Shown here in pieces: positions 15,155 through 56,546 of a stretch of 64,000 bases of DNA. Position 1 is the first letter of the stretch. Each line of letters opens with the position of its first letter. This DNA comes from Escherichia coli (GTDB lineage Bacteria; Pseudomonadota; Gammaproteobacteria; Enterobacterales; Enterobacteriaceae): NCBI RefSeq assembly GCF_003790525.1, contig NZ_CP033635.1; one strand, given 5' to 3'. The notes below the pieces were generated by a model. The model had not been told where the DNA came from. It saw only the letters and a program-made list of their open reading frames with translations, and did no database searches. The translations under genes and the position numbers were made by a program.

Positions 15155-15238
15155 TTAATTTCGATTATTTTTCCCGGATGGAAAATTCTTAGAAACCGAT
15201 CACATACAGCTGCATTTATTAAGGTTATCATCCGTTTC

Positions 15239-15325
15239 GCTGAAAAACATAACCCATAAAATGCTAGCTGTACCAGGAACCACCTCCTTAGCCTGTGTAA
15301 TCTCCCTTACACGGGCTTATTTTTT
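15239..15325 (+). ncRNA. cyaR: CyaR (RyeE) Hfq-dependent sRNA
   Basis: GCTGAAAAACATAACCCATAAAATGCTAGCTGTACCAGGAACCACCTCCTTAGCCTGTGTAATCTCCCTTACACGGGCTTATTTTTT matches the CyaR sequence as remembered; ends in a hairpin (GTGTAATCTCCCTTACAC) plus T-run; a -10-like TATCAT lies about 8 bp upstream. Confidence 0.8.
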
Positions 15326-15483
15326 ATGCATAAGCCCTATCCCTGGTCACCGTCTTCCATTGACCACATCGATAGAATCTCCCTTCATAGCACGATGCCT
15401 TTCACGTAACGGCATCGTGCTCGCACAGGTTCCGGCTAAGCACAACCAGAACGCACATATTTGACGCTTACCAAAAAATATTC

Positions 15484-15801
15484 TCACTCTCCACATTTGA
15501 ATGTCAGACGAGCGACACCATGTAATCCTACACCTTCTGTCTTCAGCTCAACTATTTGCATTTTTTTGCCCTGAGTAACACAGAAATGGGCTGCATCATT
15601 TTTTACTATATTTTCTGCACCAGATATTCTACCCCTGGCTAAAGAAGCTTCGGCTTCGGTGTAGTATTGGTTATCGAGTTTACGCTGAATATTACTTTTA
15701 TATGCAAGGCCAAATTTACCGATACTTGTCTCATCATTATGCACAGCACAACCAGACATAAGAAAAACACTAATTAATGATATAGCAGCTATTTTATTCA
15801 C
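15484..15801 (-). CDS. yegR: Small lipoprotein-like protein YegR (105 aa, probable GTG start)
   Basis: ORF 15484-15906 trimmed to GTG giving (M)NKIAAISLISVFLMSGCAV..., signal peptide with lipobox LMSGC. Confidence 0.7.
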   Translation of the reverse strand: MNKIAAISLISVFLMSGCAVHNDETSIGKFGLAYKSNIQRKLDNQYYTEAEASLARGRISGAENIVKNDAAHFCVTQGKKMQIVELKTEGVGLHGVARLTFKCGE

Positions 15802-16214
15802 CTCACCTTCCCCCATTAAATACCAACGACACTCTCTAGTGTTTAAGTATAATAATGGCCGATCATTATAATTGAATAGGATTATAATAAATGTTTTGTA
15901 CAACATTTCCTACATAAGTAGGAATTACAGACTCAGAGGCCCTTCCGGGTAACCCTATGGGAGCTTTAATATATTTGGAATAGTATATTGAAGATGCCAC
16001 TGTTTAGTTGAATATTAGATATTTGCTCTTTTTTCAAATTTACCGGTGGCTACCGTTAACATTCACTGCCCCCATTGCAAGCTCCTGGTGGTAACAACTG
16101 AATTACCCATGCTTGAACTGACTTTTTATCCTCCGACTTTCATCCTGTTCTGACTCCACCTTTTGTTTTCTGCTCTACACTATCTACAGACCAATCATAA
16201 AGGCACATACGATC

Positions 16215-17114
16215 ATGGCAGAATTTCCCGCCAGCTTACTGATTCTTAATGGCAAAAGTACTGACAATCTACCCTTGCGCGAAGCAATTATGCTGTTGCG
16301 TGAGGAAGGAATGACGATCCATGTGCGGGTCACCTGGGAGAAAGGTGATGCCGCACGATTTGTAGAGGAGGCCCGGAAGTTGGGCGTCGCAACGGTGATT
16401 GCTGGAGGTGGCGATGGCACCATTAATGAAGTTTCTACGGCGTTGATTCAGTGTGAGGGGGATGACATACCCGCGCTGGGAATTTTACCATTAGGAACCG
16501 CCAATGATTTTGCCACCAGCGTAGGGATTCCTGAGGCACTGGATAAGGCGCTGAAACTGGCAATTGCCGGTGACGCCATTGCGATAGATATGGCGCAGGT
16601 CAACAAACAAACCTGTTTTATTAATATGGCGACAGGCGGATTTGGGACGCGTATTACCACAGAAACGCCGGAAAAATTAAAAGCCGCGCTGGGTAGCGTC
16701 TCTTACATCATTCATGGCTTAATGCGTATGGATACTCTGCAACCGGACCGTTGTGAAATCCGCGGTGAAAACTTTCACTGGCAAGGTGACGCCCTGGTCA
16801 TTGGTATTGGTAACGGGCGTCAGGCCGGTGGCGGTCAGCAATTGTGTCCGAACGCGTTAATTAACGATGGCTTGCTGCAACTGCGCATTTTTACCGGCGA
16901 TGAAATACTTCCGGCTCTCGTATCAACCTTAAAATCTGACGAAGATAACCCGAATATTATCGAAGGCGCTTCGTCGTGGTTTGATATTCAGGCACCACAC
17001 GACATCACCTTTAATCTTGATGGCGAACCGTTGAGTGGGCAAAATTTTCATATTGAAATACTTCCGGCAGCGTTGCGTTGCCGTCTGCCACCAGATTGCC
17101 CGCTTTTACGTTAA
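16215..17114 (+). CDS. yegS: Lipid kinase YegS (diacylglycerol-kinase catalytic-domain family, 299 aa)
   Basis: 299-aa ORF with GGDGT motif ([13 protein letters not shown]). Confidence 0.9.
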
Positions 17115-17187: not shown

Positions 17188-17841
17188 TTACGCAGCTACG
17201 GCTAACGCTGCCAGTAATTCATTCATCGATAAATATCTTGCACTCGCCGCATTAAAGCAGGTTTGTTGGGCATCTTCTGATACCACAATGGTGTTTATTC
17301 CTGCCGCCTGTGCTGCCTGAAAACCACTCACGCTGTCCTCTATAACCAAACAATCTGCAGCAGACAGTTGCAATTCTCGCAGTGCAGAAAGATAAACTGC
17401 CGGATGGGGTTTCCCATGCTTTTCGTCATCAGCACTACAAATCACCGAAAAATAATGCTGAATATTGAGTTTTGTCAGTACAGCATCGATCACCTGGTAA
17501 GATGAAGAGGTTGCCAGCGCCAGTTGATAGCCACTCCGGCGCAAAAAAAATAACACGTCCTGAACGCCTGGCATCGCTTCGCCCGTCCCGGCAATCAACG
17601 TAGTGATCAGGCGGCGAATCTCACTTTCCAACAGTGCGGGTTCAATGTGTAAATGACAATATTCACACCAGGTTTGGGCAATCTCATCCAGCCTTTTACC
17701 TTTAGTCAGTCTTATACACTCTTCGTCACTGACACATGCGCCCCACCTTGCCAGTGCTCCCTTTTGTGCCTCACGCCATAACCCTTCCGAATCAATGATG
17801 ACGCCGTCCATATCAAAAATGACTGCTTTACAATTAAACAT
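17188..17841 (-). CDS. HAD-superfamily sugar-phosphate phosphatase (217 aa)
   Basis: ORF 17188-17886 trimmed to ATG at 17841 preceded by GAGGAA; HAD motif I FDMDGVIIDS; lies immediately downstream of atlT. Confidence 0.8.
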   Translation of the reverse strand: MFNCKAVIFDMDGVIIDSEGLWREAQKGALARWGACVSDEECIRLTKGKRLDEIAQTWCEYCHLHIEPALLESEIRRLITTLIAGTGEAMPGVQDVLFFLRRSGYQLALATSSSYQVIDAVLTKLNIQHYFSVICSADDEKHGKPHPAVYLSALRELQLSAADCLVIEDSVSGFQAAQAAGINTIVVSEDAQQTCFNAASARYLSMNELLAALAVAA

Positions 17842-17885
17842 TGTTCCTCGCAATAAAGCCTGGCACCACACCAGGCTTGTCGTCA

Positions 17886-19163
17886 TCAGGAAATGGTGGC
17901 GGTCTTCCCTTCACACACTTGCTGATTTGAGAATCCCGGTTGTTCGACGCGAATAAACGGGCAAATAATAAACGCTATCACATACAGGGTGGTGTAAGCG
18001 ATAACCACACCAATAGTACTGAAATAAGGCAGAAGTACCACGGCGATTGCCGGAGCAAGGAAGTTGGACAACCCGGCTGAAAGGTTATAAACCGAAATAG
18101 CTGCTCCTTTATGTTTCGGTTCCAGTGCCGGGAAAACGGCTGCCATCGGTACGAATGCAGCAACAAAGATCCCCAGTGCCACCGCAGGTATCAGCGCCAT
18201 AGCAAAGTTATGACCGAAATGTTGCGGCATGTAGTAGAACGCCAGGCTTGAAAGCGCCATTCCCACGCAACCAAACCAGCGAACAACTTTCATCCAGCCC
18301 ATTTTCTCTGCCAGCACGCCCCAGAATACGTTAGAGAAGATGGTGGTAAAGAAGAAGACTGCCCAGACCTGCAACCACTCAGAGGTGGTAAAGCCCAGCT
18401 CATCAACAAACATCATCGGCATAATTACGGCGAATCCGAATAAAGATAAGGTGTTGATAATGCGAACAATACTGGAAAGCAAAATATTGCGGTTGGTATA
18501 AAGCAAAGTCACCGCACGGCCCAGTTCGCTAAACTTCTCTTTTGTGGTTAGGTTTTGCATATGGCGTGGTGTTTCTACTTTGCGCATAGAAATTAACGCA
18601 ACAGCGCCACCAACCCCACAGAAGGCCAGCGCCAGCCATAATGTTCCCATTTCGCCAATAAGCGGAATGGTAAAACTGGGGATGTAGCTGCCGAATACGC
18701 CGATACCAATAGAGTAAACTGCCCAGAACCAGCCCAGAGCAGCACTGGTGCTGTCACTGCGTACGTTATGGACAATCGCCACAATAAAGGCGTAGAGGAA
18801 CAGCGGATAGGCTAGGCCACGAATACCATAAAACAGCAGGATTAACCCATAGTTCGCCTGCCCCAGACCAAAGACCAGAAACAGCACGTGAAATACGCAC
18901 CACAGCACAAAGCCGATAAACATGGTTTTTTGTGGCGTAATAATTTCGGCAACTACGCCGGAAACCCAGGCGGAAAGCGCTGCCGCCAGGCCATAGAGCG
19001 TAAAGGCAAAGGAGGCTTCTGCAGGCGTGAAACCCAGTGCTTTAATGTAATGCGACAGGAATGCCAGTTCAAAACCGTCTCCGGTCATAAAGATGGCAAT
19101 GGCAATATATCCCCACACCAGATTTAAGGGTAATCCCAGCCATTGTTTATTTGTTAACGACAT
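17886..19163 (-). CDS. atlT: MFS pentitol transporter, D-arabitol operon (425 aa)
   Basis: ORF trimmed to MSLTNKQWLGL...; about 85% identical by eye to the second MFS protein at 26892-28166. Confidence 0.85.
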   Translation of the reverse strand: MSLTNKQWLGLPLNLVWGYIAIAIFMTGDGFELAFLSHYIKALGFTPAEASFAFTLYGLAAALSAWVSGVVAEIITPQKTMFIGFVLWCVFHVLFLVFGLGQANYGLILLFYGIRGLAYPLFLYAFIVAIVHNVRSDSTSAALGWFWAVYSIGIGVFGSYIPSFTIPLIGEMGTLWLALAFCGVGGAVALISMRKVETPRHMQNLTTKEKFSELGRAVTLLYTNRNILLSSIVRIINTLSLFGFAVIMPMMFVDELGFTTSEWLQVWAVFFFTTIFSNVFWGVLAEKMGWMKVVRWFGCVGMALSSLAFYYMPQHFGHNFAMALIPAVALGIFVAAFVPMAAVFPALEPKHKGAAISVYNLSAGLSNFLAPAIAVVLLPYFSTIGVVIAYTTLYVIAFIICPFIRVEQPGFSNQQVCEGKTATIS

Positions 19164-19231
19164 AGTGACCTCGTTTGTAGGATACAAAACGCCGCTCCGG
19201 TGCAAACACCGGAGGGCATTTGTGACAGATG

Positions 19232-20695
19232 TTATTGATTGCGATAGTTCAGGTCGTTGTGATACAGCGCAGTAAACTGCTGATATCGTTGCATCAGCGC
19301 ATTATGACGTTCAGGATCGCTGCGCCAGGTTTTGAAGATTTCAGGTTTTTCACACACTGCCGCCAGTGGTTTTCCCGCAGCAAGACAGGCCAGACGCGCG
19401 GCTCCCAGCGCCCCACCCGTTTCACCGCCTTTATGCGTCACCACTGGCATATCGAGAATATCGGCCAGTAACTGCGCCCAGAATGGACTTCTCGCCCCCC
19501 CACCTACCAGCGAGCATTGCTCAATTGCCGTACCGCTTTCTTGCAGGACTCGCAGCCCATCGGCAATACCAAAGCTGACGCCTTCCAGCACTGCATATCC
19601 CATTAGCGCACGCTGACTGGAGTGTGTCAGCGCCCAGAACAATCCCCGGGCATGAGGATCGTTATGTGGCGTACGTTCACCAGAAAGATACGGGAGGAAC
19701 ATCGGTGCACTGGCTTTGTCTGCATCAGAAAGTTGGGCAATCTCTTCCAGTAACTCTGTTTCCGTTACCCCCACCAGACGGCAGAACCATTGCAGACAAC
19801 TGGCGGCACTGAGCATTACACTCATCTGGTGCCATAAATTCGGTAGTACGTGACAGAAAGCATGGACTGCTGATTGCGGCGCAGGACGATAGGCATCAGT
19901 CACTACAAACAACACCCCGGAAGTTCCCAAAGAAATAAACGCATCTCCGGGAGAAACGGCCCCCACACCAATTGCGCTCACGGCGTTATCGCCACCGCCA
20001 CCAGCAACTACAACCGAAGATGTCAGCCCCCAACGGCTGGCAACTTCAGGGGAAAGAGTGGCAGAAACGTCACAACCTTCCACCAGTTCCGGCATATTCG
20101 CCCGTGTCAGGCCACATTTTTCCAGCAACGAATCTGACCAGTCGCGTTTTTCCACGTCGAGCCACAACGTGCCAGCAGAATCCGACATATCGGAAATCTT
20201 TTGGCCGGTCATTTTGAAACGCAAATAGTCTTTCGGCAGTAAAACGGTGGAAATGCGCGCAAAGTGCTGCGGCTCATGGCGCCGTACCCATAGCAATTTG
20301 GGGGCGGTAAATCCAGGCATCGCCAGGTTTCCCGCTACCTGATGCAACTCTGGTGCGATCTCTTCCAGCTCCGCACACTCCTGCGCACTGCGGGTGTCGT
20401 TCCATAAAATCGCCGGACGAATCGCCTCTCCTTTTTCATCCAACAGGACGGCACCATGCATTTGACCAGAAAGGCCAATGGCTTTGATCGCCTGCCAGTG
20501 GTGACCGCATTTTTCCCGCAGGGTCGACATTAAATATTCCGTCGCTTCCCACCAGGCTTGCGGCGATTGTTCTGACCAGTGTGGATGGGGCCGCTGAATG
20601 GTCAGCGGCGCACTATGGGTGGCAACAATTTCATTGTTTTCATCAATGACCAGCGCCTTAACTTCCGATGTGCCCAGATCGATACCCAGATACAT
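19232..20695 (-). CDS. atlK: FGGY-family kinase, xylulokinase-like (487 aa)
   Basis: N-terminus MYLGIDLGTSEVKA typical of FGGY sugar kinases; AGGAGG before the ATG. Confidence 0.85.
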   Translation of the reverse strand: MYLGIDLGTSEVKALVIDENNEIVATHSAPLTIQRPHPHWSEQSPQAWWEATEYLMSTLREKCGHHWQAIKAIGLSGQMHGAVLLDEKGEAIRPAILWNDTRSAQECAELEEIAPELHQVAGNLAMPGFTAPKLLWVRRHEPQHFARISTVLLPKDYLRFKMTGQKISDMSDSAGTLWLDVEKRDWSDSLLEKCGLTRANMPELVEGCDVSATLSPEVASRWGLTSSVVVAGGGGDNAVSAIGVGAVSPGDAFISLGTSGVLFVVTDAYRPAPQSAVHAFCHVLPNLWHQMSVMLSAASCLQWFCRLVGVTETELLEEIAQLSDADKASAPMFLPYLSGERTPHNDPHARGLFWALTHSSQRALMGYAVLEGVSFGIADGLRVLQESGTAIEQCSLVGGGARSPFWAQLLADILDMPVVTHKGGETGGALGAARLACLAAGKPLAAVCEKPEIFKTWRSDPERHNALMQRYQQFTALYHNDLNYRNQ

Positions 20696-20708
20696 AACCG
20701 CCTCCTGG

Positions 20709-22076
20709 TTAGTTAATTAACGCGTAGACGTCAGCGATTTTTTCGCGCAACAACGCGGCAAAATCTTCACGTTCGGTTAAATCGCCAAACAGCGCTTTAT
20801 CACTGGCATAAACAGCGACGGGATCGGCAGACTGGAACATTGCATGGACAGCTGGTGCATCAAGGATGCCATCCTGATATTCATAGGGCAGTTTGCCGTG
20901 ATGCCATTGCTCCATGAATACGTAAAACAGTGCAGGTAACATGGCGGTGGCATTCGGGCGAACGCCTCGCTGGTAGCACTCTCGCAGTGTGGGGGCAATC
21001 ATCGCCGGAATTTTCGAGAAACCATCCGCAGCGACGCGTTGGTTGGTGTCCTGAATATGTGGATTGGTAAAACGCTTGAGTACAACATCACGGTAGGTTG
21101 GCAAATCGATACCGTTATCGCCCAAGCAAGGAATGACATCTTCCGTCACGTAGCGGTCGGCAATCTGATAGATAAAATCGGTCATTGTGCTTTCGTGGAT
21201 ATATTTTTGACCGATTAACGTACCTGCCCAGGCGATGCAACTGTGTGAAGAGTTAAGAATGCGAATCTTCGCCTCTTCATAGGGGATTACCGACGCCACC
21301 AGTTCGACACCGACCTTCTCCAGTGCCGGACGGACATCACGGAAATTATCTTCCACGACCCACTGGATAAAGGTTTCGCCCATTACCGGCGCTTTATCGG
21401 CAATACCCGTTTGAGCCTTGATCCGTGCCGGAAGTTCTGCTGCCGGACGAGGCGTAATGCGGTCAACCATGGTATTCGGGCAAGTGGTATTTGTACTCAG
21501 CCAGTCGATGACATCCTGTTTGCCAGTTAGCTGGAGAAACTCAACCAGGCCATCATGGAAACGTTCACCATTATGGCGCACGTTATCGCAATTCAGCAGG
21601 GTTAGTGGTCCGGCGTTATTTGCCATACGTGCTTCGAGGATACGGGTAATAACACCGTAAATTGTTTTGCATCCCCCTTTAAGATCTGCCGCTAAATCAG
21701 GATTGTTAACTTCCAGTTTGTGACTGGTATTCAGGTAGTACCCGCCTTCGGTGACGGTGAAAGCAATCACTTTTGTCTTCGGATCTGCCCCTTCAGCAAT
21801 CAGCGGTTGTAAATCTGCCTGCCACGGTATCAACTTCTGAATTGAGGTGATCTCTTCATATTCGCTTACCCCTTCCGGGCTGACGGTTTCCAGCACATAG
21901 CGACCTTTCTGTGCACTGAGTGCCTGTACGACATGTTCAGCATCATTACGAATATTGCCCGCAGCAATGCTCCAGCGTTTATCGCCCATCACCTGCAAAC
22001 GGTGTAGATACCACGCCTGATGTGCGCGATGAAAAGAACCTAACCCGATGTGCAGCCATGTAAATTGTTCGTTCAT
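20709..22076 (-). CDS. atlD: Mannitol-dehydrogenase-family polyol dehydrogenase, D-arabitol 4-dehydrogenase-like (455 aa)
   Basis: ORF 20709-22121 trimmed to [21 protein letters not shown] (Rossmann N-terminus); the start could instead be 15 codons upstream. Confidence 0.8.
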
Positions 22077-22288
22077 TGTTTCGTTCTCCATTGACGTTAT
22101 GGCTGAACTGTAATCGAACATTTGAGTTAATTAAGAGCGTTAGATCACAAAAGAACAATTGACCAAAAAAATTACAAATGACCAAATCAAAGCAATAAAC
22201 TTGCCTCGCGGTAAAGCTATGGCCAAAATGACGCTAATCAGTTGCGGGATTTTCACGATTCCGCACGCCACTTTTGAGGTAGGGAAAC

Positions 22289-23230
22289 GTGAACAAAGAA
22301 GATGACATCAGGCTCGATCAAAAAGTACGGGCGGCATGGATGTACTACATTGCCGGACTTAATCAGAGTGAAATCGCAAGTCAGTTAGGTACTTCACGGC
22401 CAGTGGTTCAACGCCTGATAGCAGCAGCGAAAGACGAAGGGATTGTGTCGATTGGATTGCATCATCCGGTTGCCAACTGTCTCGATTATGCCCAACTGTT
22501 AAAGGAAAAGTACCAATTAACCGACTGCAATATTATGCCGGTTTACAGTATTGAAAGTACGCTCGACAGCGTGACATTTGGCTGTTATCAACTGATGGCG
22601 CGTTACTTACAGGGTGACAAACCGACCATCGTTGGTATTGGTTCTGGCTTAACGTTGAAGAAAACCATTAAACGTATCGATTTTGATAGTCAGAATACCC
22701 GCTGTGTGGCGCTGATTAGCGCCATGAATGAACACGGGCAATGTAACTATTACGACGACGTACCGCTGCTTTTGGCGAGAAAAATTCAGGGAAAATATTA
22801 CCAGTGGCCAGCTCCACGCTATGCTCAGTCCCGCGAAGAGTACCAAATGTGGTCAACCAATCGATTGTTCCGCAACGTCTCTACCGTAGCGCGTGACTCT
22901 GATGTTATTTTCGTGGGTATTGGTGCTTTAGGTCGTCAAAGCCCTATTTTCAAAGATGGCTTTATTGATGAGCAGCAACTGGAAGAGTTAACAGCACGCG
23001 GAGGCGTTGGTGAAATCCTCGGACGCTTTATTGATGCTGAAGGCAATGTTGTGGAAAGCCAGATCAACCAGATGATCACCAGCCATGATATCCGCGAAAG
23101 CAACTGCCCACGTATCGCAGCTGCCTGTGGTGAGGATAAACGTCCGGCGATCCTCGCAGCATTAAAAGGTGGGTGGATCAACGGTCTGGTCACCGATGAA
23201 CACACCGCACGCTGGTTGCTGACACGTTAA
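22289..23230 (+). CDS. atlR: SorC/DeoR-type sugar-binding transcriptional regulator (313 aa)
   Basis: N-terminal HTH (LNQSEIASQLGTSRPVVQRL) plus sugar-binding domain; divergent from atlDKT. Symbol assigned by adjacency only. Confidence 0.75.
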   Translation: MNKEDDIRLDQKVRAAWMYYIAGLNQSEIASQLGTSRPVVQRLIAAAKDEGIVSIGLHHPVANCLDYAQLLKEKYQLTDCNIMPVYSIESTLDSVTFGCYQLMARYLQGDKPTIVGIGSGLTLKKTIKRIDFDSQNTRCVALISAMNEHGQCNYYDDVPLLLARKIQGKYYQWPAPRYAQSREEYQMWSTNRLFRNVSTVARDSDVIFVGIGALGRQSPIFKDGFIDEQQLEELTARGGVGEILGRFIDAEGNVVESQINQMITSHDIRESNCPRIAAACGEDKRPAILAALKGGWINGLVTDEHTARWLLTR

Positions 23231-23232
23231 TC

Positions 23233-24264
23233 TCAGCTGACAACATTCAGGCTCGGAATGAGTTGTGGCGGTATCTCAATGCGACGCAGGGTGGTATCGC
23301 CAGAATCCACAATTTCAAACACTTTTTCGAGCATGGCGGGTACATCCTGACGAACCATATCGATATCGTGCCCGAGCAGAGAAACAAAAGGATCCCAGTC
23401 AAAACACCCCATTGGCGGTTGATTGGCTCCCGTCTGCCCGGTTTGCGCCAGCCAGCGAACCACCCCTTCAAGAGAGATTGTCGAGTTGACGAATAACCCG
23501 TGAAGCGATACTGCAGAGCTTTGGAAGACCTCTTTCAGTAATCCCTCTACGCGAGCAGAAGAGTAGCCGGTAACCAGTTTATGTTCATCCGGTACGGTTA
23601 TCCCCAAAGCCTGATGGGCATCGACAAAACCACATAAACGTTCAGCAGTATTGTTATCGCTTATACGTCCACCGACAAAAGTCAAAGGTGCCAGCTTGCC
23701 ATAGCGTTTCTGGCTGTTGGCTAAAATTCTTTCCGTCAATAATTTCGCCCCCATATAGTTATCAGAAATGATCGACGGCGCCAGTGTTCCCGGCAGATCC
23801 AGATTCAGTGTCGGTACGCCCGCTTGCTGGCACATTTGGGCTATTTTATCCGGTTGAGTCGCTCCGGTAGCAATGACCCAATCCACCTGCCAGGAGAGCA
23901 TGGCGCGAGCAGCCTCAATTTCCAGTTCTGGCTGTCGCCGCGTACAGGTGATGATTGGCAGTAATCCTCTGGCACGCGCCATCTCTTCAAATTTTTCGGC
24001 AATCGATCCAAAGTATCGGTTGTCATATTTCGGCACAATCATGCCAATAACGTTGGATTTTTTACTGCGCAGTAAACTTGCCTGCCGATTAATGGCATAT
24101 CCCTGCTCTTCCGCAATACGGGTGACCTTCTCAGCCAGCTTTGCGCTGATGCGTCGCTTTTTCCAGTTGCCATTCAAAATAGCGCTTACCGCACTGGCAG
24201 AAACGCCGGTTAATTCTGCCAGGTCGTAAATGGTCGTTTTCTTCGTTTTCTCAACGCGTGTCAC
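23233..24264 (-). CDS. rtlR: LacI-family transcriptional repressor (343 aa)
   Basis: LacI-type HTH (TIYDLAELTGVSASAVS) plus periplasmic-binding-like domain; divergent from rtlDKT. Symbol assigned by adjacency only. Confidence 0.75.
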   Translation of the reverse strand: MTRVEKTKKTTIYDLAELTGVSASAVSAILNGNWKKRRISAKLAEKVTRIAEEQGYAINRQASLLRSKKSNVIGMIVPKYDNRYFGSIAEKFEEMARARGLLPIITCTRRQPELEIEAARAMLSWQVDWVIATGATQPDKIAQMCQQAGVPTLNLDLPGTLAPSIISDNYMGAKLLTERILANSQKRYGKLAPLTFVGGRISDNNTAERLCGFVDAHQALGITVPDEHKLVTGYSSARVEGLLKEVFQSSAVSLHGLFVNSTISLEGVVRWLAQTGQTGANQPPMGCFDWDPFVSLLGHDIDMVRQDVPAMLEKVFEIVDSGDTTLRRIEIPPQLIPSLNVVS

Positions 24265-24422
24265 AAATTTGCCTCTTCATTTTGAATGTCTCTTGCTGAG
24301 AATTTAAGCAAGTGCTAGATCTGCTTCATCGATTGAGCAGTTTGCTTCACACGGCAGCTAAATTCCCGTTCAGTGCGTGCAAGCAAACAGAGACTATAAA
24401 TTCGCCCTGGTAAAAGGATTAT

Positions 24423-25175
24423 ATGATGAATCACTCTGTGCCCTCTATGAATACTCCCCTTAATGGCAAAGTTGCAGCTATCACTGGCGCTGCGTCAGGT
24501 ATTGGCCTGCAATGTGCAAAAACGCTGCTCGATGCAGGAGCAAAGGTAGTATTGATTGACCGGGAAGGCGACAAACTGCACAAGATTGTCGCTGAGTTAG
24601 GCGAAAACGCGTACGCGCTGCAACTCGATCTCTTCAATAATCAGCAAGTCGATAACATGCTGGCGGACATTATCGAACTGGCGGGTGGGCTGGATATTTT
24701 TCATGCCAATGCAGGCGCTTATATTGGCGGCCCAGTGGCTGAAGGTGATCCAGATGTCTGGGATCGTGTGTTAAATCTGAATATAAATGCGGCGTTTCGC
24801 TGTGTCCGTGCAGTCCTGCCGCATATGATTGCGCAGAGGTCGGGCGATATAATTTTTACCAGTTCCATCGCGGGCGTCGTTCCGGTTATCTGGGAACCGA
24901 TCTACACCGCGTCCAAATTTGCCGTTCAGGCATTCGTACACACTACCCGCCGCCAGGTTTCTCAATATGGCGTGCGTGTGGGTGCGGTGCTGCCAGGACC
25001 AGTAGTCACTGCCCTGCTTGATGACTGGCCAAAAGCCAAAATGGAAGAAGCCCTGGCAAATGGTAGCCTGATGCAACCGATTGAAGTGGCGGAATCAGTA
25101 TTGTTTATGGTGACCCGCTCGAAAAATGTCACCGTGCGAGATTTAGTGATCCTGCCTGGCAGTGTCGATCTGTAA
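24423..25175 (+). CDS. rtlD: Short-chain dehydrogenase/reductase, ribitol 2-dehydrogenase-like (about 249 aa)
   Basis: SDR motifs TGAASGIG and YTASK; the start may be the second ATG at 24426. Confidence 0.85.
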
Positions 25176-25185
25176 GGGCGCAATC

Positions 25186-26790
25186 ATGACAATAACCAAA
25201 ACCGTTATTGGTGTTGATGTGGGATCAGGCAGTGTCCGCGCCGGGATTTTTGATCTCAACGGATCTCTGCTATCCCATGCCACAGAAAAAATCACGACTA
25301 CGCGGCGCAGCGGAAGCCGCGTGGAACAGTCCAGCCAGGAGATCTGGCAGGCGGTCTGTTCATGTATTCGTAATGCGCTCACTCTGGCAGACGTTTGTGC
25401 ACAAAGTGTGGCAGGCATCGGTTTTGATGCCACCTGTTCTCTGGTGGTACTGGATAAAAACGGTGATCCATTGCCTGTCAGCCCGGAAGGAGATGCAAAG
25501 CAAAATATCATTGTGTGGATGGATCACCGCGCCACCGAACAAGCAGAGCGAATCAATGCCACTCACCATCCGGTGCTGAACTACGTCGGTGGTAAAATTT
25601 CGCCTGAAATGGAAACACCGAAAATTCTCTGGCTGAAAGAAAATATGCCAGAGATCTACGAACGTGCCGGACAATTTTTCGATCTGGCCGATTTTCTGAC
25701 CTGGCGGGCTACCGGTGATTTAGCGCGTTCAGTATGCACTGTTACCTGTAAATGGACGTGGCTGGCACATGAAAATCGCTGGGATCCAGATTATTTCCGC
25801 ACCATTGGCCTTGCAGAGTTAGCGGATGAAGATTTTATTCGCATTGGTCATCATATTGTTTCTCCCGGAACACCTTGTGGAAATGGTTTAACAGCACAAG
25901 CCGCGGCAGAGATGGGATTACTCCCCGGCACACCTGTCGCTGTAGGGTTAATTGATGCTCACGCTGGTGGCATCGGTACGGTTGGCGTAGAAGGTGGAGC
26001 GCTGAACAATCTCGCGTATGTTTTCGGCACTTCTTCATGCACCATGGCATCTACCACTTCTCCCTCGTTTGTACCGGGTGTCTGGGGGCCGTATTACAGT
26101 GCGATGGTTCCAGGTCTGTGGTTAGTTGAAGGCGGGCAAAGTGCTGCGGGAGCAGCTATTGACCAGCTACTTGATTTCCATCCGGCTGTTGAAGAAGCTC
26201 GCGAAATGGCACAACGTGTGAATCAGCCCCTCCCCGTCTGGCTTGCTGATCGAATCCTCGAAAAAACGGCGCAACCATCAGATGCTGTCGCCCTGGCGAA
26301 AGGGCTACACGTGGTGCCGGAATTTCTCGGAAATCGCGCCCCCTTCGCAGATCCTCATGCCAGAGCGGTAATTTGTGGCCTGGGTATGGAGCGAGATCTG
26401 GATAATTTACTCGCCTTGTATATCGCTGGATTATGCGGAATTGGTTATGGTCTGCGCCAAATTCTCGACGCTCAAACAGCGCAGGGAGTAGTGAGTAAAA
26501 ATATCGTTATTAGCGGCGGTGCCGGGCAGCATCCACTGGTACGACAAATTCTGGCAGATACCTGCGGTATTCCGGTCATTACCACGCAATGCTGCGAACC
26601 GGTTTTATTAGGCTCGGCCATTCTTGGTGCTGTCGCCGGAAATATTGCACCTTCTGTTGGCGAAGCGATGCAACAATTCACCCATGTGGATAAATATTAT
26701 TATCCGCAAGAACGCTATCAATCTCTTCATCATCGTCGATATGAGGCCTATAAGCAGTTGCAGCATACTGCAAAATTACTCAGAGACTAA
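25186..26790 (+). CDS. rtlK: FGGY-family kinase, D-ribulokinase-like (534 aa)
   Basis: ORF 25162-26790 trimmed to ATG at 25186 (MTITKTVIGVDVGSGSVRAG...), 10 bp after the rtlD stop. Confidence 0.85.
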   Translation: MTITKTVIGVDVGSGSVRAGIFDLNGSLLSHATEKITTTRRSGSRVEQSSQEIWQAVCSCIRNALTLADVCAQSVAGIGFDATCSLVVLDKNGDPLPVSPEGDAKQNIIVWMDHRATEQAERINATHHPVLNYVGGKISPEMETPKILWLKENMPEIYERAGQFFDLADFLTWRATGDLARSVCTVTCKWTWLAHENRWDPDYFRTIGLAELADEDFIRIGHHIVSPGTPCGNGLTAQAAAEMGLLPGTPVAVGLIDAHAGGIGTVGVEGGALNNLAYVFGTSSCTMASTTSPSFVPGVWGPYYSAMVPGLWLVEGGQSAAGAAIDQLLDFHPAVEEAREMAQRVNQPLPVWLADRILEKTAQPSDAVALAKGLHVVPEFLGNRAPFADPHARAVICGLGMERDLDNLLALYIAGLCGIGYGLRQILDAQTAQGVVSKNIVISGGAGQHPLVRQILADTCGIPVITTQCCEPVLLGSAILGAVAGNIAPSVGEAMQQFTHVDKYYYPQERYQSLHHRRYEAYKQLQHTAKLLRD

Positions 26791-26891
26791 TTAACCAGCC
26801 GCCTGACGCTGTTTTCAGGCAATCACTAATAACGACTCACTCCGGTAATATCCCGGAGTGCATTCATCTGCACCCTAAAAACGAGGTTTAT

Positions 26892-28166
26892 ATGTCCAGA
26901 AATAATAAACAGTGGTTGGGTTTGCCACTGCATCTGATATGGGGATATATCGCCATCGCAGTATTTATGACTGGTGATGGTTTCGAACTCGCATTCTTAT
27001 CGCACTATATTAAATCGTTAGGCTTCACACCTGCGGAAGCCTCTTTTGCCTTTACGCTCTACGGCCTGGCGGCTGCCCTTTCCGCCTGGGTTTCTGGGGT
27101 AGTAGCGGAAATCATCACGCCGCAAAAAACCATGCTGATTGGTTTTGTCCTATGGTGCGTATTCCATGTTCTGTTTCTGGTCTTTGGATTAGGACAGGCA
27201 AACTATGGGTTAATCCTGCTGTTTTACGGGATTCGTGGTTTAGCGTATCCGCTATTTCTCTACTCATTTATCGTCGTTATTATTCATAACGTGCGTAGCG
27301 AAAATTCCAGTTCTGCTCTGGGTTGGTACTGGGCGGTATATTCAGTAGGGATCGGTGTTGCTGGCAGTTATATTCCCAGTTTTACGATACCGATTATGGG
27401 TGAAATGGGAACCTTATGGCTGGCACTGGCGTTCTGCTTTGCTGGCGGTGTCATTGCCATGATCTCCTTGCGTCATGTTAAAACGCCTGGACATATGCAT
27501 AATTTAACTCCCCGTGAGAAGTTTGCAGAATTAAGTCGGGCAGTAACTTTACTTTATACCAACCGCAATATTTTTCTCTCCAGTATTGTGCGCATTATAA
27601 ATACCTTATCGTTATTCGGTTTTGCGGTCATTATGCCAATGATGTTTGTGGATGAACTGGGATTCACCACCTCTGAATGGTTGCAGGTCTGGGCGGCATT
27701 TTTCTTTACCACTATTTTCTCTAATATTTTTTGGGGGATTGTGGCAGAAAAAATGGGCTGGATGCGTGTTATTCGCTGGTTTGGTTGCCTCGGGATGGCA
27801 GCATCAAGTTTAGCGTTTTACTACATGCCGCAATACTTTGGTCACAACTACTGGATGGCAATGATTCCGGCGATTGCTCTGGGAACTTTTGTTGCTGCAT
27901 TTGTGCCGATGGCCGCTGTCTTCCCGGCACTGGAACCAAAACACAAAGGTGCTGCAATCTCGGTTTACAACCTCTCTGCGGGTATGTCTAACTTCCTGGC
28001 TCCGGCAATTGCCGTGGTGTTATTACCGTGGTTTAGCACTATCGGTGTGGTCATTGCCTATACAGCATTGTATCTATTGGCCTTTGTCCTTTGCGCATTC
28101 ATTCGCGTTGAGCAGCCAGGATTCAGTTCTGCGCCAGTGACTGAGAAGGCATTGAATATCTCCTGA
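26892..28166 (+). CDS. rtlT: MFS pentitol transporter, ribitol operon (424 aa)
   Basis: Paralog of atlT (MSRNNKQWLGLPLHLIWGYIAIAVF...). Confidence 0.85.
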   Translation: MSRNNKQWLGLPLHLIWGYIAIAVFMTGDGFELAFLSHYIKSLGFTPAEASFAFTLYGLAAALSAWVSGVVAEIITPQKTMLIGFVLWCVFHVLFLVFGLGQANYGLILLFYGIRGLAYPLFLYSFIVVIIHNVRSENSSSALGWYWAVYSVGIGVAGSYIPSFTIPIMGEMGTLWLALAFCFAGGVIAMISLRHVKTPGHMHNLTPREKFAELSRAVTLLYTNRNIFLSSIVRIINTLSLFGFAVIMPMMFVDELGFTTSEWLQVWAAFFFTTIFSNIFWGIVAEKMGWMRVIRWFGCLGMAASSLAFYYMPQYFGHNYWMAMIPAIALGTFVAAFVPMAAVFPALEPKHKGAAISVYNLSAGMSNFLAPAIAVVLLPWFSTIGVVIAYTALYLLAFVLCAFIRVEQPGFSSAPVTEKALNIS

Positions 28167-36039: not shown

Positions 36040-36145
36040 GCAATGACCTGGTGGTCCGTGACTTCCCTACGCTGGCATTATCCAGATCAGGTGATACGGG
36101 TATTTCTCAGCCTTCACGCAGAAGGGCACCCCGAGTCGTTTGGTT
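36040..36145 (-). ncRNA. TPP (thi-box) riboswitch in the thiMD leader; ends approximate
   Basis: Minus strand reads GGGGTGCCCTTCTGCGTGAAGGCTGAGAAATACCCGTATCACCTGATCTGGATAATGCCAGCGTAGGGAA, containing the conserved CTGAGA and ACCTGATCTGGATAATGCCAGCG elements of the thiM riboswitch. Confidence 0.85.
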
Positions 36146-56348: not shown

Positions 56349-56516
56349 TATACTCTAAATAATTCAAATTGGTCCGATCCGGCGCAACGTCCCAATGGCC
56401 TGGATTATAAATCTCATTATCTTAATTGCAACGGGGTCCAGCCGTGGTTATAATTCGTTCGTTGGAACACGATGTTGCACAGGCTGTGGTGTTAGGCCTG
56501 AAAATAGTAAATAAAA

Positions 56517-56546
56517 GAACCTGCCTCACCAGCAGGTTTTTTTATT
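56517..56546 (+). terminator. Intrinsic terminator downstream of yehK
   Basis: CCTGC-CTCACCA-GCAGG followed by TTTTTTT. Confidence 0.75.

Follow-up and report, generated by a model that had tools for sequence, protein, structure and literature searches.

Features of the locus

The window, by which we mean the whole stretch of 64,000 nucleotides of Escherichia coli DNA that was analysed, carries an intact gene for the small RNA CyaR, followed by a short spacer, by the yegR gene on the opposite strand, and by yegS. In Table 1, we report the coordinates of these genes and of the smaller features discussed below. CyaR matches its full Rfam model (model positions 1-85) with 100.7 bits, against a gathering score of 47, and folding gives an intact terminator made of an 11-bp stem and a T-run. 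Measured from the Rfam end of CyaR to the stop of the yegR reading frame at position 15484, the gap between the two genes is 158-161 bp, in agreement with a preliminary description of this DNA that had put it at about 160 bp.

Table 1. Features between cyaR and yegS, in positions of the window.
Feature	Position	Strand	Basis
CyaR (RyeE) sRNA gene, intact	15237..15322	+	Rfam RF00112
P2 attB core, 27 bp, AATCTCCCTTACACGGGCTTATTTTTT; loop, 3' stem half and T-run of the CyaR terminator	15299..15325		100% identity to P2 attP core
Spacer between CyaR and yegR, unoccupied; K-12 carries PR-X (ogrK, yegZ) here	15326..15483		MG1655 alignment
Segment missing from the cyaR-yegS interval of sister Escherichia and of most other Enterobacteriaceae examined	15326..16127		802 bp, MAFFT with L083, L059, L062
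Vestige homologous to the P2 attP 'P arm'	15338..15386		alignment with P2
Int arm-site homologue	15345..15372		22/28 positions match the annotated P2 P-arm site
Perfect 11-bp hairpin, AGCACGATGCC / GGCATCGTGCT, 11-nt loop, without U-tract	15389..15421	minus-strand fold	-24.6 kcal/mol, z -5.8
yegR, 105-aa predicted lipoprotein, signal peptide ending in lipobox LMSGC	15484..15801	-	ORF
Int-side arm-like 25 nt, 76% identity to the P2 stretch that adjoins the attP core on its int side	16072..16096		alignment
core', degenerate second core copy, 17/27 (18/27 in K-12)	16101..16127		best core match in the whole 889-nt interval
yegS, lipid kinase, ancestral right-hand neighbour of cyaR	16215..17114	+	ORF, annotation, tblastn across species loci

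The yegR gene is named in the annotation of ECCHD184 (YegR, or lipoprotein YegR), which is 100% identical to the window over 851 bp. Over the same length the identity to MG1655 is 96.2%, which bears out the earlier assignment of this DNA to a non-K-12 lineage. A Pfam scan of YegR with a local library gives a sub-threshold DUF333 only, and the precomputed family PF27694, carried by its homologues, is the YegR family itself. The protein is found almost only in E. coli. Inactivation of yegR has no phenotype in glucose-limited chemostats (PMC3708739).

The spacer holds a perfect hairpin, 63 nt downstream of the yegR stop, that may form the 3' end of the yegR transcript; a terminator scan does not call it an intrinsic terminator. 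Relative to the arm vestige listed in Table 1, it is placed roughly where P2 has its ogr terminator, to which it is not homologous. We dropped a structural claim for this hairpin, since a natural variant in SCU-116 weakens the stem without compensation. In 948 of 5,426 complete E. coli genomes, a 171-bp AT-rich insertion is found directly 3' of the yegR stop (window-equivalent position 15480/15481; positions 682-852 of L002). It is present in the type strain ATCC 11775 and absent from the window and from K-12, and it is a single-copy sequence with one or two places per genome, hence not a repeated mobile element.

Two other features that the preliminary description had taken as marks of a non-K-12 lineage are indeed in the window, a third Sib unit and an rtl/atl island. 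Three tandem SIB antitoxin RNA units occupy 1071-1877 (RF00113, 137-150 bits each); the ECCHD184 annotation has only two Ibs toxin genes at the SIB locus. A pentitol (arabinitol/ribitol) island extends from about 17188 to 27000 (22089-31691 in L111), after yegS and ending near fbaB, with genes for a HAD hydrolase, an RbtT/DalT-type MFS transporter, xylB, dalD, two regulators, an SDR oxidoreductase and an FGGY pentulose kinase. The ECCHD184 annotation adds an IS1 at the far end of the island. At the position where the island starts, K-12 has gatR and gatD in the MG1655 annotation. What follows them there in K-12 we take to be the rest of the gat operon. Further away, the window includes a TPP riboswitch on the minus strand near thiM/thiD (36047-36143; RF00059, 71.2 bits) and an OrzO-P antitoxin RNA (56468-56543; RF02083, 99.9 bits).

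A P2 attachment core at the CyaR terminator

The terminator of CyaR overlaps a sequence known from phage P2. The 27 bp at the 3' end of cyaR reproduce without a mismatch positions 24356-24382 of the P2 genome (AF063097), annotated as the 'attP core' bound by Int, and the match can be extended to 28/28 nt (window 15299-15326, P2 24355-24382). On one side of the attP core, the P2 record has the IHF site, the Int 'P arm', the ogr terminator and ogr; on the other side, it has the Cox sites, the 'P' arm' and int. Natural P2-like prophages sit exactly at this core, with a copy of it at both junctions. The ogr-side junction is seen in strain elppa10, where a full P2-like prophage adjoins cyaR and the core with its arm, then ogr, D and the tail genes. 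For the int side, strain D6 has the replication genes, cox, C and int, then the core, a flank of the window type and yegR.

Aligned with K-12, a check that the preliminary description had proposed, the interval is not equally short there. Between cyaR and yegR, the MG1655 annotation reports a 'cryptic prophage PR-X' of 629 bp (2167183-2167811) that consists of ogrK and a yegZ/D' pseudogene, the P2-like remnant that the description had named for K-12. In a pairwise alignment, the window and K-12 are collinear on either side of a single K-12-only block, which is PR-X. The block is flanked in K-12 by an 18-bp direct repeat, TACACGGGCTTATTTTTT, and alignment and repeat together put the K-12 insertion point exactly at the att core. 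This insertion point is common to PR-X and the window site, and the right-hand flanks are 93-94% identical. The ogr gene and the D' fragment that make up PR-X between cyaR and yegR are absent from the window by alignment, tblastn and blastn. PR-X is K-12's, and the window has the empty, pre-integration form of the site. We searched 15326-16135 with the P2 proteins Int, Ogr and C (tblastn) and with both ends of natural prophages (blastn), and found in it no similarity to the three proteins and no P2 gene DNA; the sole DNA match of the prophage-end queries in this range is a 31-nt piece of the P-arm vestige. Taken together, the core identity and the natural junctions make it very probable that 15299-15325 is the attB of P2 and its relatives, unoccupied in the window strain, and that in K-12 the same site is filled by the PR-X remnant.

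We take the P2 site at cyaR to be the 'locI' of E. coli C (Yu et al. 1989; Barreiro and Haggard-Ljungquist 1992), which in the later of these two studies is reportedly the preferred P2 site in E. coli C and not in K-12, and in which the K-12 remnant is also said to be described. If that name is right, the core of the E. coli C site at the cyaR 3' end is no different from that of the window.

The states of the site can be pictured with the standard mechanism of P2, in which Int and IHF recombine the phage attP with an attB that is a simple core. Since the 27 bp are the same in the phage, integration rebuilds a complete cyaR gene and terminator on the ogr side, and the second core copy is displaced to the int side of the prophage, beside yegR. 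K-12 very probably descends from a lysogen of this kind, with a prophage later deleted down to the attachment arm, ogr and D', the 629 bp of PR-X; the deletion was internal and left the distal core fused to a 3' portion of gene D. Phages and islands at the 3' ends of tRNA, tmRNA and sRNA genes likewise restore the end of the gene with the phage copy. Such sites include tRNA genes for 186 and P4, rybB for P2-like phages, and ssrA and sdsR/ryeB for other elements (sdsR in Salmonella). As at those sites, successive insertions and decayed remnants pile up at cyaR, where the core overlaps the sRNA terminator. The target at cyaR is an Hfq-dependent regulatory sRNA, whereas in the tRNA-site systems it is a tRNA.

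The frequencies of the different states were obtained with three 200-bp junction probes compared to the 5,426 complete E. coli genomes. The contiguous empty junction is present in 4,217 genomes (78%), the P2-like junction of int arm, core and yegR flank in 817 (15%), and the K-12-type D'-core junction in 356 (6.6%). The three states together amount to 5,390 among the 5,423 genomes that have the locus. Flank identity across the genomes with an empty junction is 93-100%, many of them being 100% identical over the 200 bp, and the empty allele is spread over very diverse strains. E. coli normally has the site empty, and the remnant of K-12 is confined to a minority of genomes. With 78% of the genomes in the empty state, absence of the remnant marks a strain as 'not K-12-like' and as nothing more specific. 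Polymorphism of the cyaR site is already published, and the finding is in this respect ordinary: Archer et al. 2011 (PMC3032704) enter 'cyaR RNA' among the P2 insertion sites of their Table 2, where it is occupied by Wphi2 in strain W, by ogr-D' in K-12 and by P2*B in B, and is empty in Crooks.

An empty site might also be a derived one, if the window lineage once held a P2-like prophage or a PR-X-like remnant and then lost it precisely, with Int and Cox excising it or with homologous recombination putting the empty allele of another strain in its place. The site is heavily used, as the 817 int-side and 356 remnant junctions attest, precise excision would regenerate exactly the window sequence, and flanks that are 93-100% identical are similar enough for allelic replacement. 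A site that was emptied and one that was never occupied read the same in the sequence alone. The empty allele is, however, the majority allele and occurs in very diverse strains, which makes it the parsimonious ancestral state, and PR-X is without int and cox, so that a remnant of its kind could not excise itself. We consider a secondary loss unlikely. That the interval was shortened by an assembly collapse or by a strain-specific deletion has nothing in its favour and is practically excluded, because 4,217 of the 5,426 genomes share the contiguous junction; the junction is identical in thousands of independent complete genomes, with its boundaries exactly at the att core. The reading of the window site as an attB in its empty state is the one that we carry forward.

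The 802-bp segment between the core and yegS

We scanned species-representative genomes with a conserved CyaR 23-mer, which gave 96 loci. In 51 of the 96, yegS starts at most 200 bp from the CyaR terminator (tblastn). The group in which cyaR and yegS are direct neighbours includes E. whittamii, Escherichia sp. E1V33, and 'E. coli E69', a separate species representative; in these three, the distance from the core to the yegS start codon is 85-87 nt. The yegR gene is in none of the 96 other-species cyaR loci, and the 802-bp segment that separates the core from the yegS leader in the window has no blastn match in them at E <= 1e-3. This segment is composed of the spacer, yegR, and the AT-rich region upstream of yegR, and its GC content is 39.5%, against 54% in yegQ and 50% in yegS. 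Since the sister clades run from cyaR directly into yegS, the 802 bp read as an insertion at the P2 core. The left boundary falls exactly at the att core, as in the MAFFT alignment the loci L083, L059 and L062 pass from the core straight into the yegS leader.

Sequences that resemble those around a P2 attP are found at both ends of the segment. At the left end, the P-arm vestige reaches a local alignment score of 22 with P2, while dinucleotide shuffles give 8.3 +/- 1.3 (z about 10.6) with a maximum of 14, so that 0/2000 reach the observed value. The vestige is 16 nt shorter than P2 in the IHF-site region, and the homology is confined to about 50 nt beside the core. K-12 has two arms: this vestige, which lies on the right of PR-X, and the intact arm of PR-X itself. 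At the right end, the arm-like 25 nt and core' form one collinear alignment of 57 nt with a score of 17, against 9.4 +/- 1.3 in shuffles, none of 2000 reaching it; the 25 nt of the arm taken alone are weak, their score being reached in 37/2000 shuffles. From the end of core' to the yegS ATG there are 87 nt, a distance that is 85-87 nt for the true core in the clades without an insertion. With its position left aside, a match of 17/27 is unremarkable (31/300 shuffles reach 17 somewhere); at that fixed position, the binomial P is about 1e-4. The match of core' is weak in itself, and it is convincing as a second core copy only through its position. The preliminary description had stated that no prophage-remnant genes are present. 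This holds for recognisable genes, and is incomplete for the interval as a whole, since the spacer starts with a homologue of the P2 Int arm site, and spacer and yegR are bounded by att-like sequences.

The segment is thus absent from relatives and low in GC, it has a distal core copy, and beside both cores there are attP arm sequences in the correct orientation. Inside it, tblastn and blastn with Int, Ogr, C and the prophage ends reveal no recognisable phage genes or fragments of them. On these alignments, the 802 bp that follow the core on the right are probably what is left, after decay, of a P2-type element that integrated earlier in an E. coli ancestor. We also lean, if only slightly, to the view that the entire cyaR-yegS interval of E. 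coli sensu stricto is an ancient P2-type prophage relic, integrated after the split from the sister Escherichia. The earlier element would have decayed to about 800 bp, and the present attB would be its regenerated proximal core, since reused. The later integrations, PR-X in K-12 and the live prophages in about 15% of strains, would then be nested inside the older relic. The proposed relic keeps no integrase or other phage gene, unlike the insertions at the 3' ends of tRNA, tmRNA and sRNA genes. Prophage remnants at a reused hot spot are of a familiar kind; the sole new element here is that the spacer and yegR would themselves be bounded by vestigial P2-type att sequences.

The resemblance between spacer and phage could have come about in the opposite direction. 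Aberrant excision is a known route by which phages gain flanking host DNA, and if a P2 ancestor took up cyaR-adjacent DNA in this way, the spacer would be ordinary host DNA. Such a capture fits a homology limited to about 50 nt beside the core. It does not fit the absence of the spacer from the sister Escherichia clades and from most other genera examined, by which the spacer is not ancestral at the locus. A phage origin is also favoured by the arm motif (GTCCACA...GACCACATCGA), which P2-like elements beside cyaR share in Citrobacter and Enterobacter and which the P2 record annotates as the Int P-arm binding site, and by the core-like copy at the distal end of the segment. Furthermore, we observed no arm-like sequence beside cyaR without a second core and an insertion. 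We regard host-DNA capture as very unlikely, and keep to the decayed P2-type integration as the preferred reading of the segment.

A geometry like that of the window is found in E. albertii NBRC 107761 and in Enterobacter sichuanensis, where an intact cyaR core is followed by an insert and by a second core 77-93 nt before the yegS ATG. In E. albertii (L010), the insert is 3,456 bp long, and the second core matches at 25/27 positions and ends 87 nt before the ATG. A truncated P2-type arm comes directly after its first core. For Enterobacter sichuanensis, the second core matches at 21/27 positions. Both second cores are better preserved than that of the window, and the cargo of both inserts is different and without yegR. 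In Pluralibacter and Mangrovibacter, the second core has 18/27 matches each. These parallels speak for the older relic. P2-type arms directly after cyaR are found in several Citrobacter and Enterobacter genomes. In four loci from Lelliottia and Enterobacter (L019, L040, L052 and L069), the hot spot is occupied by yet another cargo: they share a cyaR-yegS insert of about 630 bp in which no second core can be recognised. One contig of a 'Collinsella sp.' MAG (L057) has an E. coli-type cyaR and, after it, a P2 arm with only two differences from that of K-12 over the 150 nt compared; the contig almost certainly comes from one of the Enterobacteriaceae and was mis-binned with an Actinobacteria genome.

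The yegR gene may have arrived with the phage element. No genuine phage-borne homologue of YegR was found in PHROG, INPHARED or IMG/VR. The match to phrog_21109 (E 7.5e-72), which would have made YegR a phage cargo protein, is E. coli yegR swept into a prophage call. The two INPHARED matches (ON470606.1 and AY639599.1) are E. coli yegR at over-extended prophage boundaries; ON470606.1, vB_EcoM-720R8, was also considered as a phage carrying the spacer, and was set aside because the record includes the host genes yegR, yegS and gatR. The 80 IMG/VR loci that we kept (L112-L191), at 94-99% identity, are all E. coli yegR at contig edges; in most of them the gene lies at the contig end or no more than 15 nt away, and in the others up to about 2.3 kb away. 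Prophage boundaries at the cyaR site are over-extended into the host, and YegR is in consequence wrongly counted as a phage protein by predictors and PHROGs. More distant homologues of YegR, at 47-59% identity, are IS-flanked in an Enterobacter and otherwise in unrelated, ordinary chromosomal contexts; these neighbourhoods are uninformative as a sign of phage origin.

The cyaR site in strains and in the family

Whether the P2 site at cyaR is empty or occupied is useful only as a strain marker. From its intact core, the window strain is predicted to accept P2-like phages at cyaR. If the older relic is real, each new int-side junction, with its P' arm, core and old P-arm vestige, would resemble a near-complete attP. 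The relic would also explain where yegR comes from: this lipoprotein gene, uncharacterised and nearly confined to E. coli, could be a fixed phage 'moron'. The terminator of this sRNA would then be a landing pad reused repeatedly across the Enterobacteriaceae, with remnants layered one upon another.
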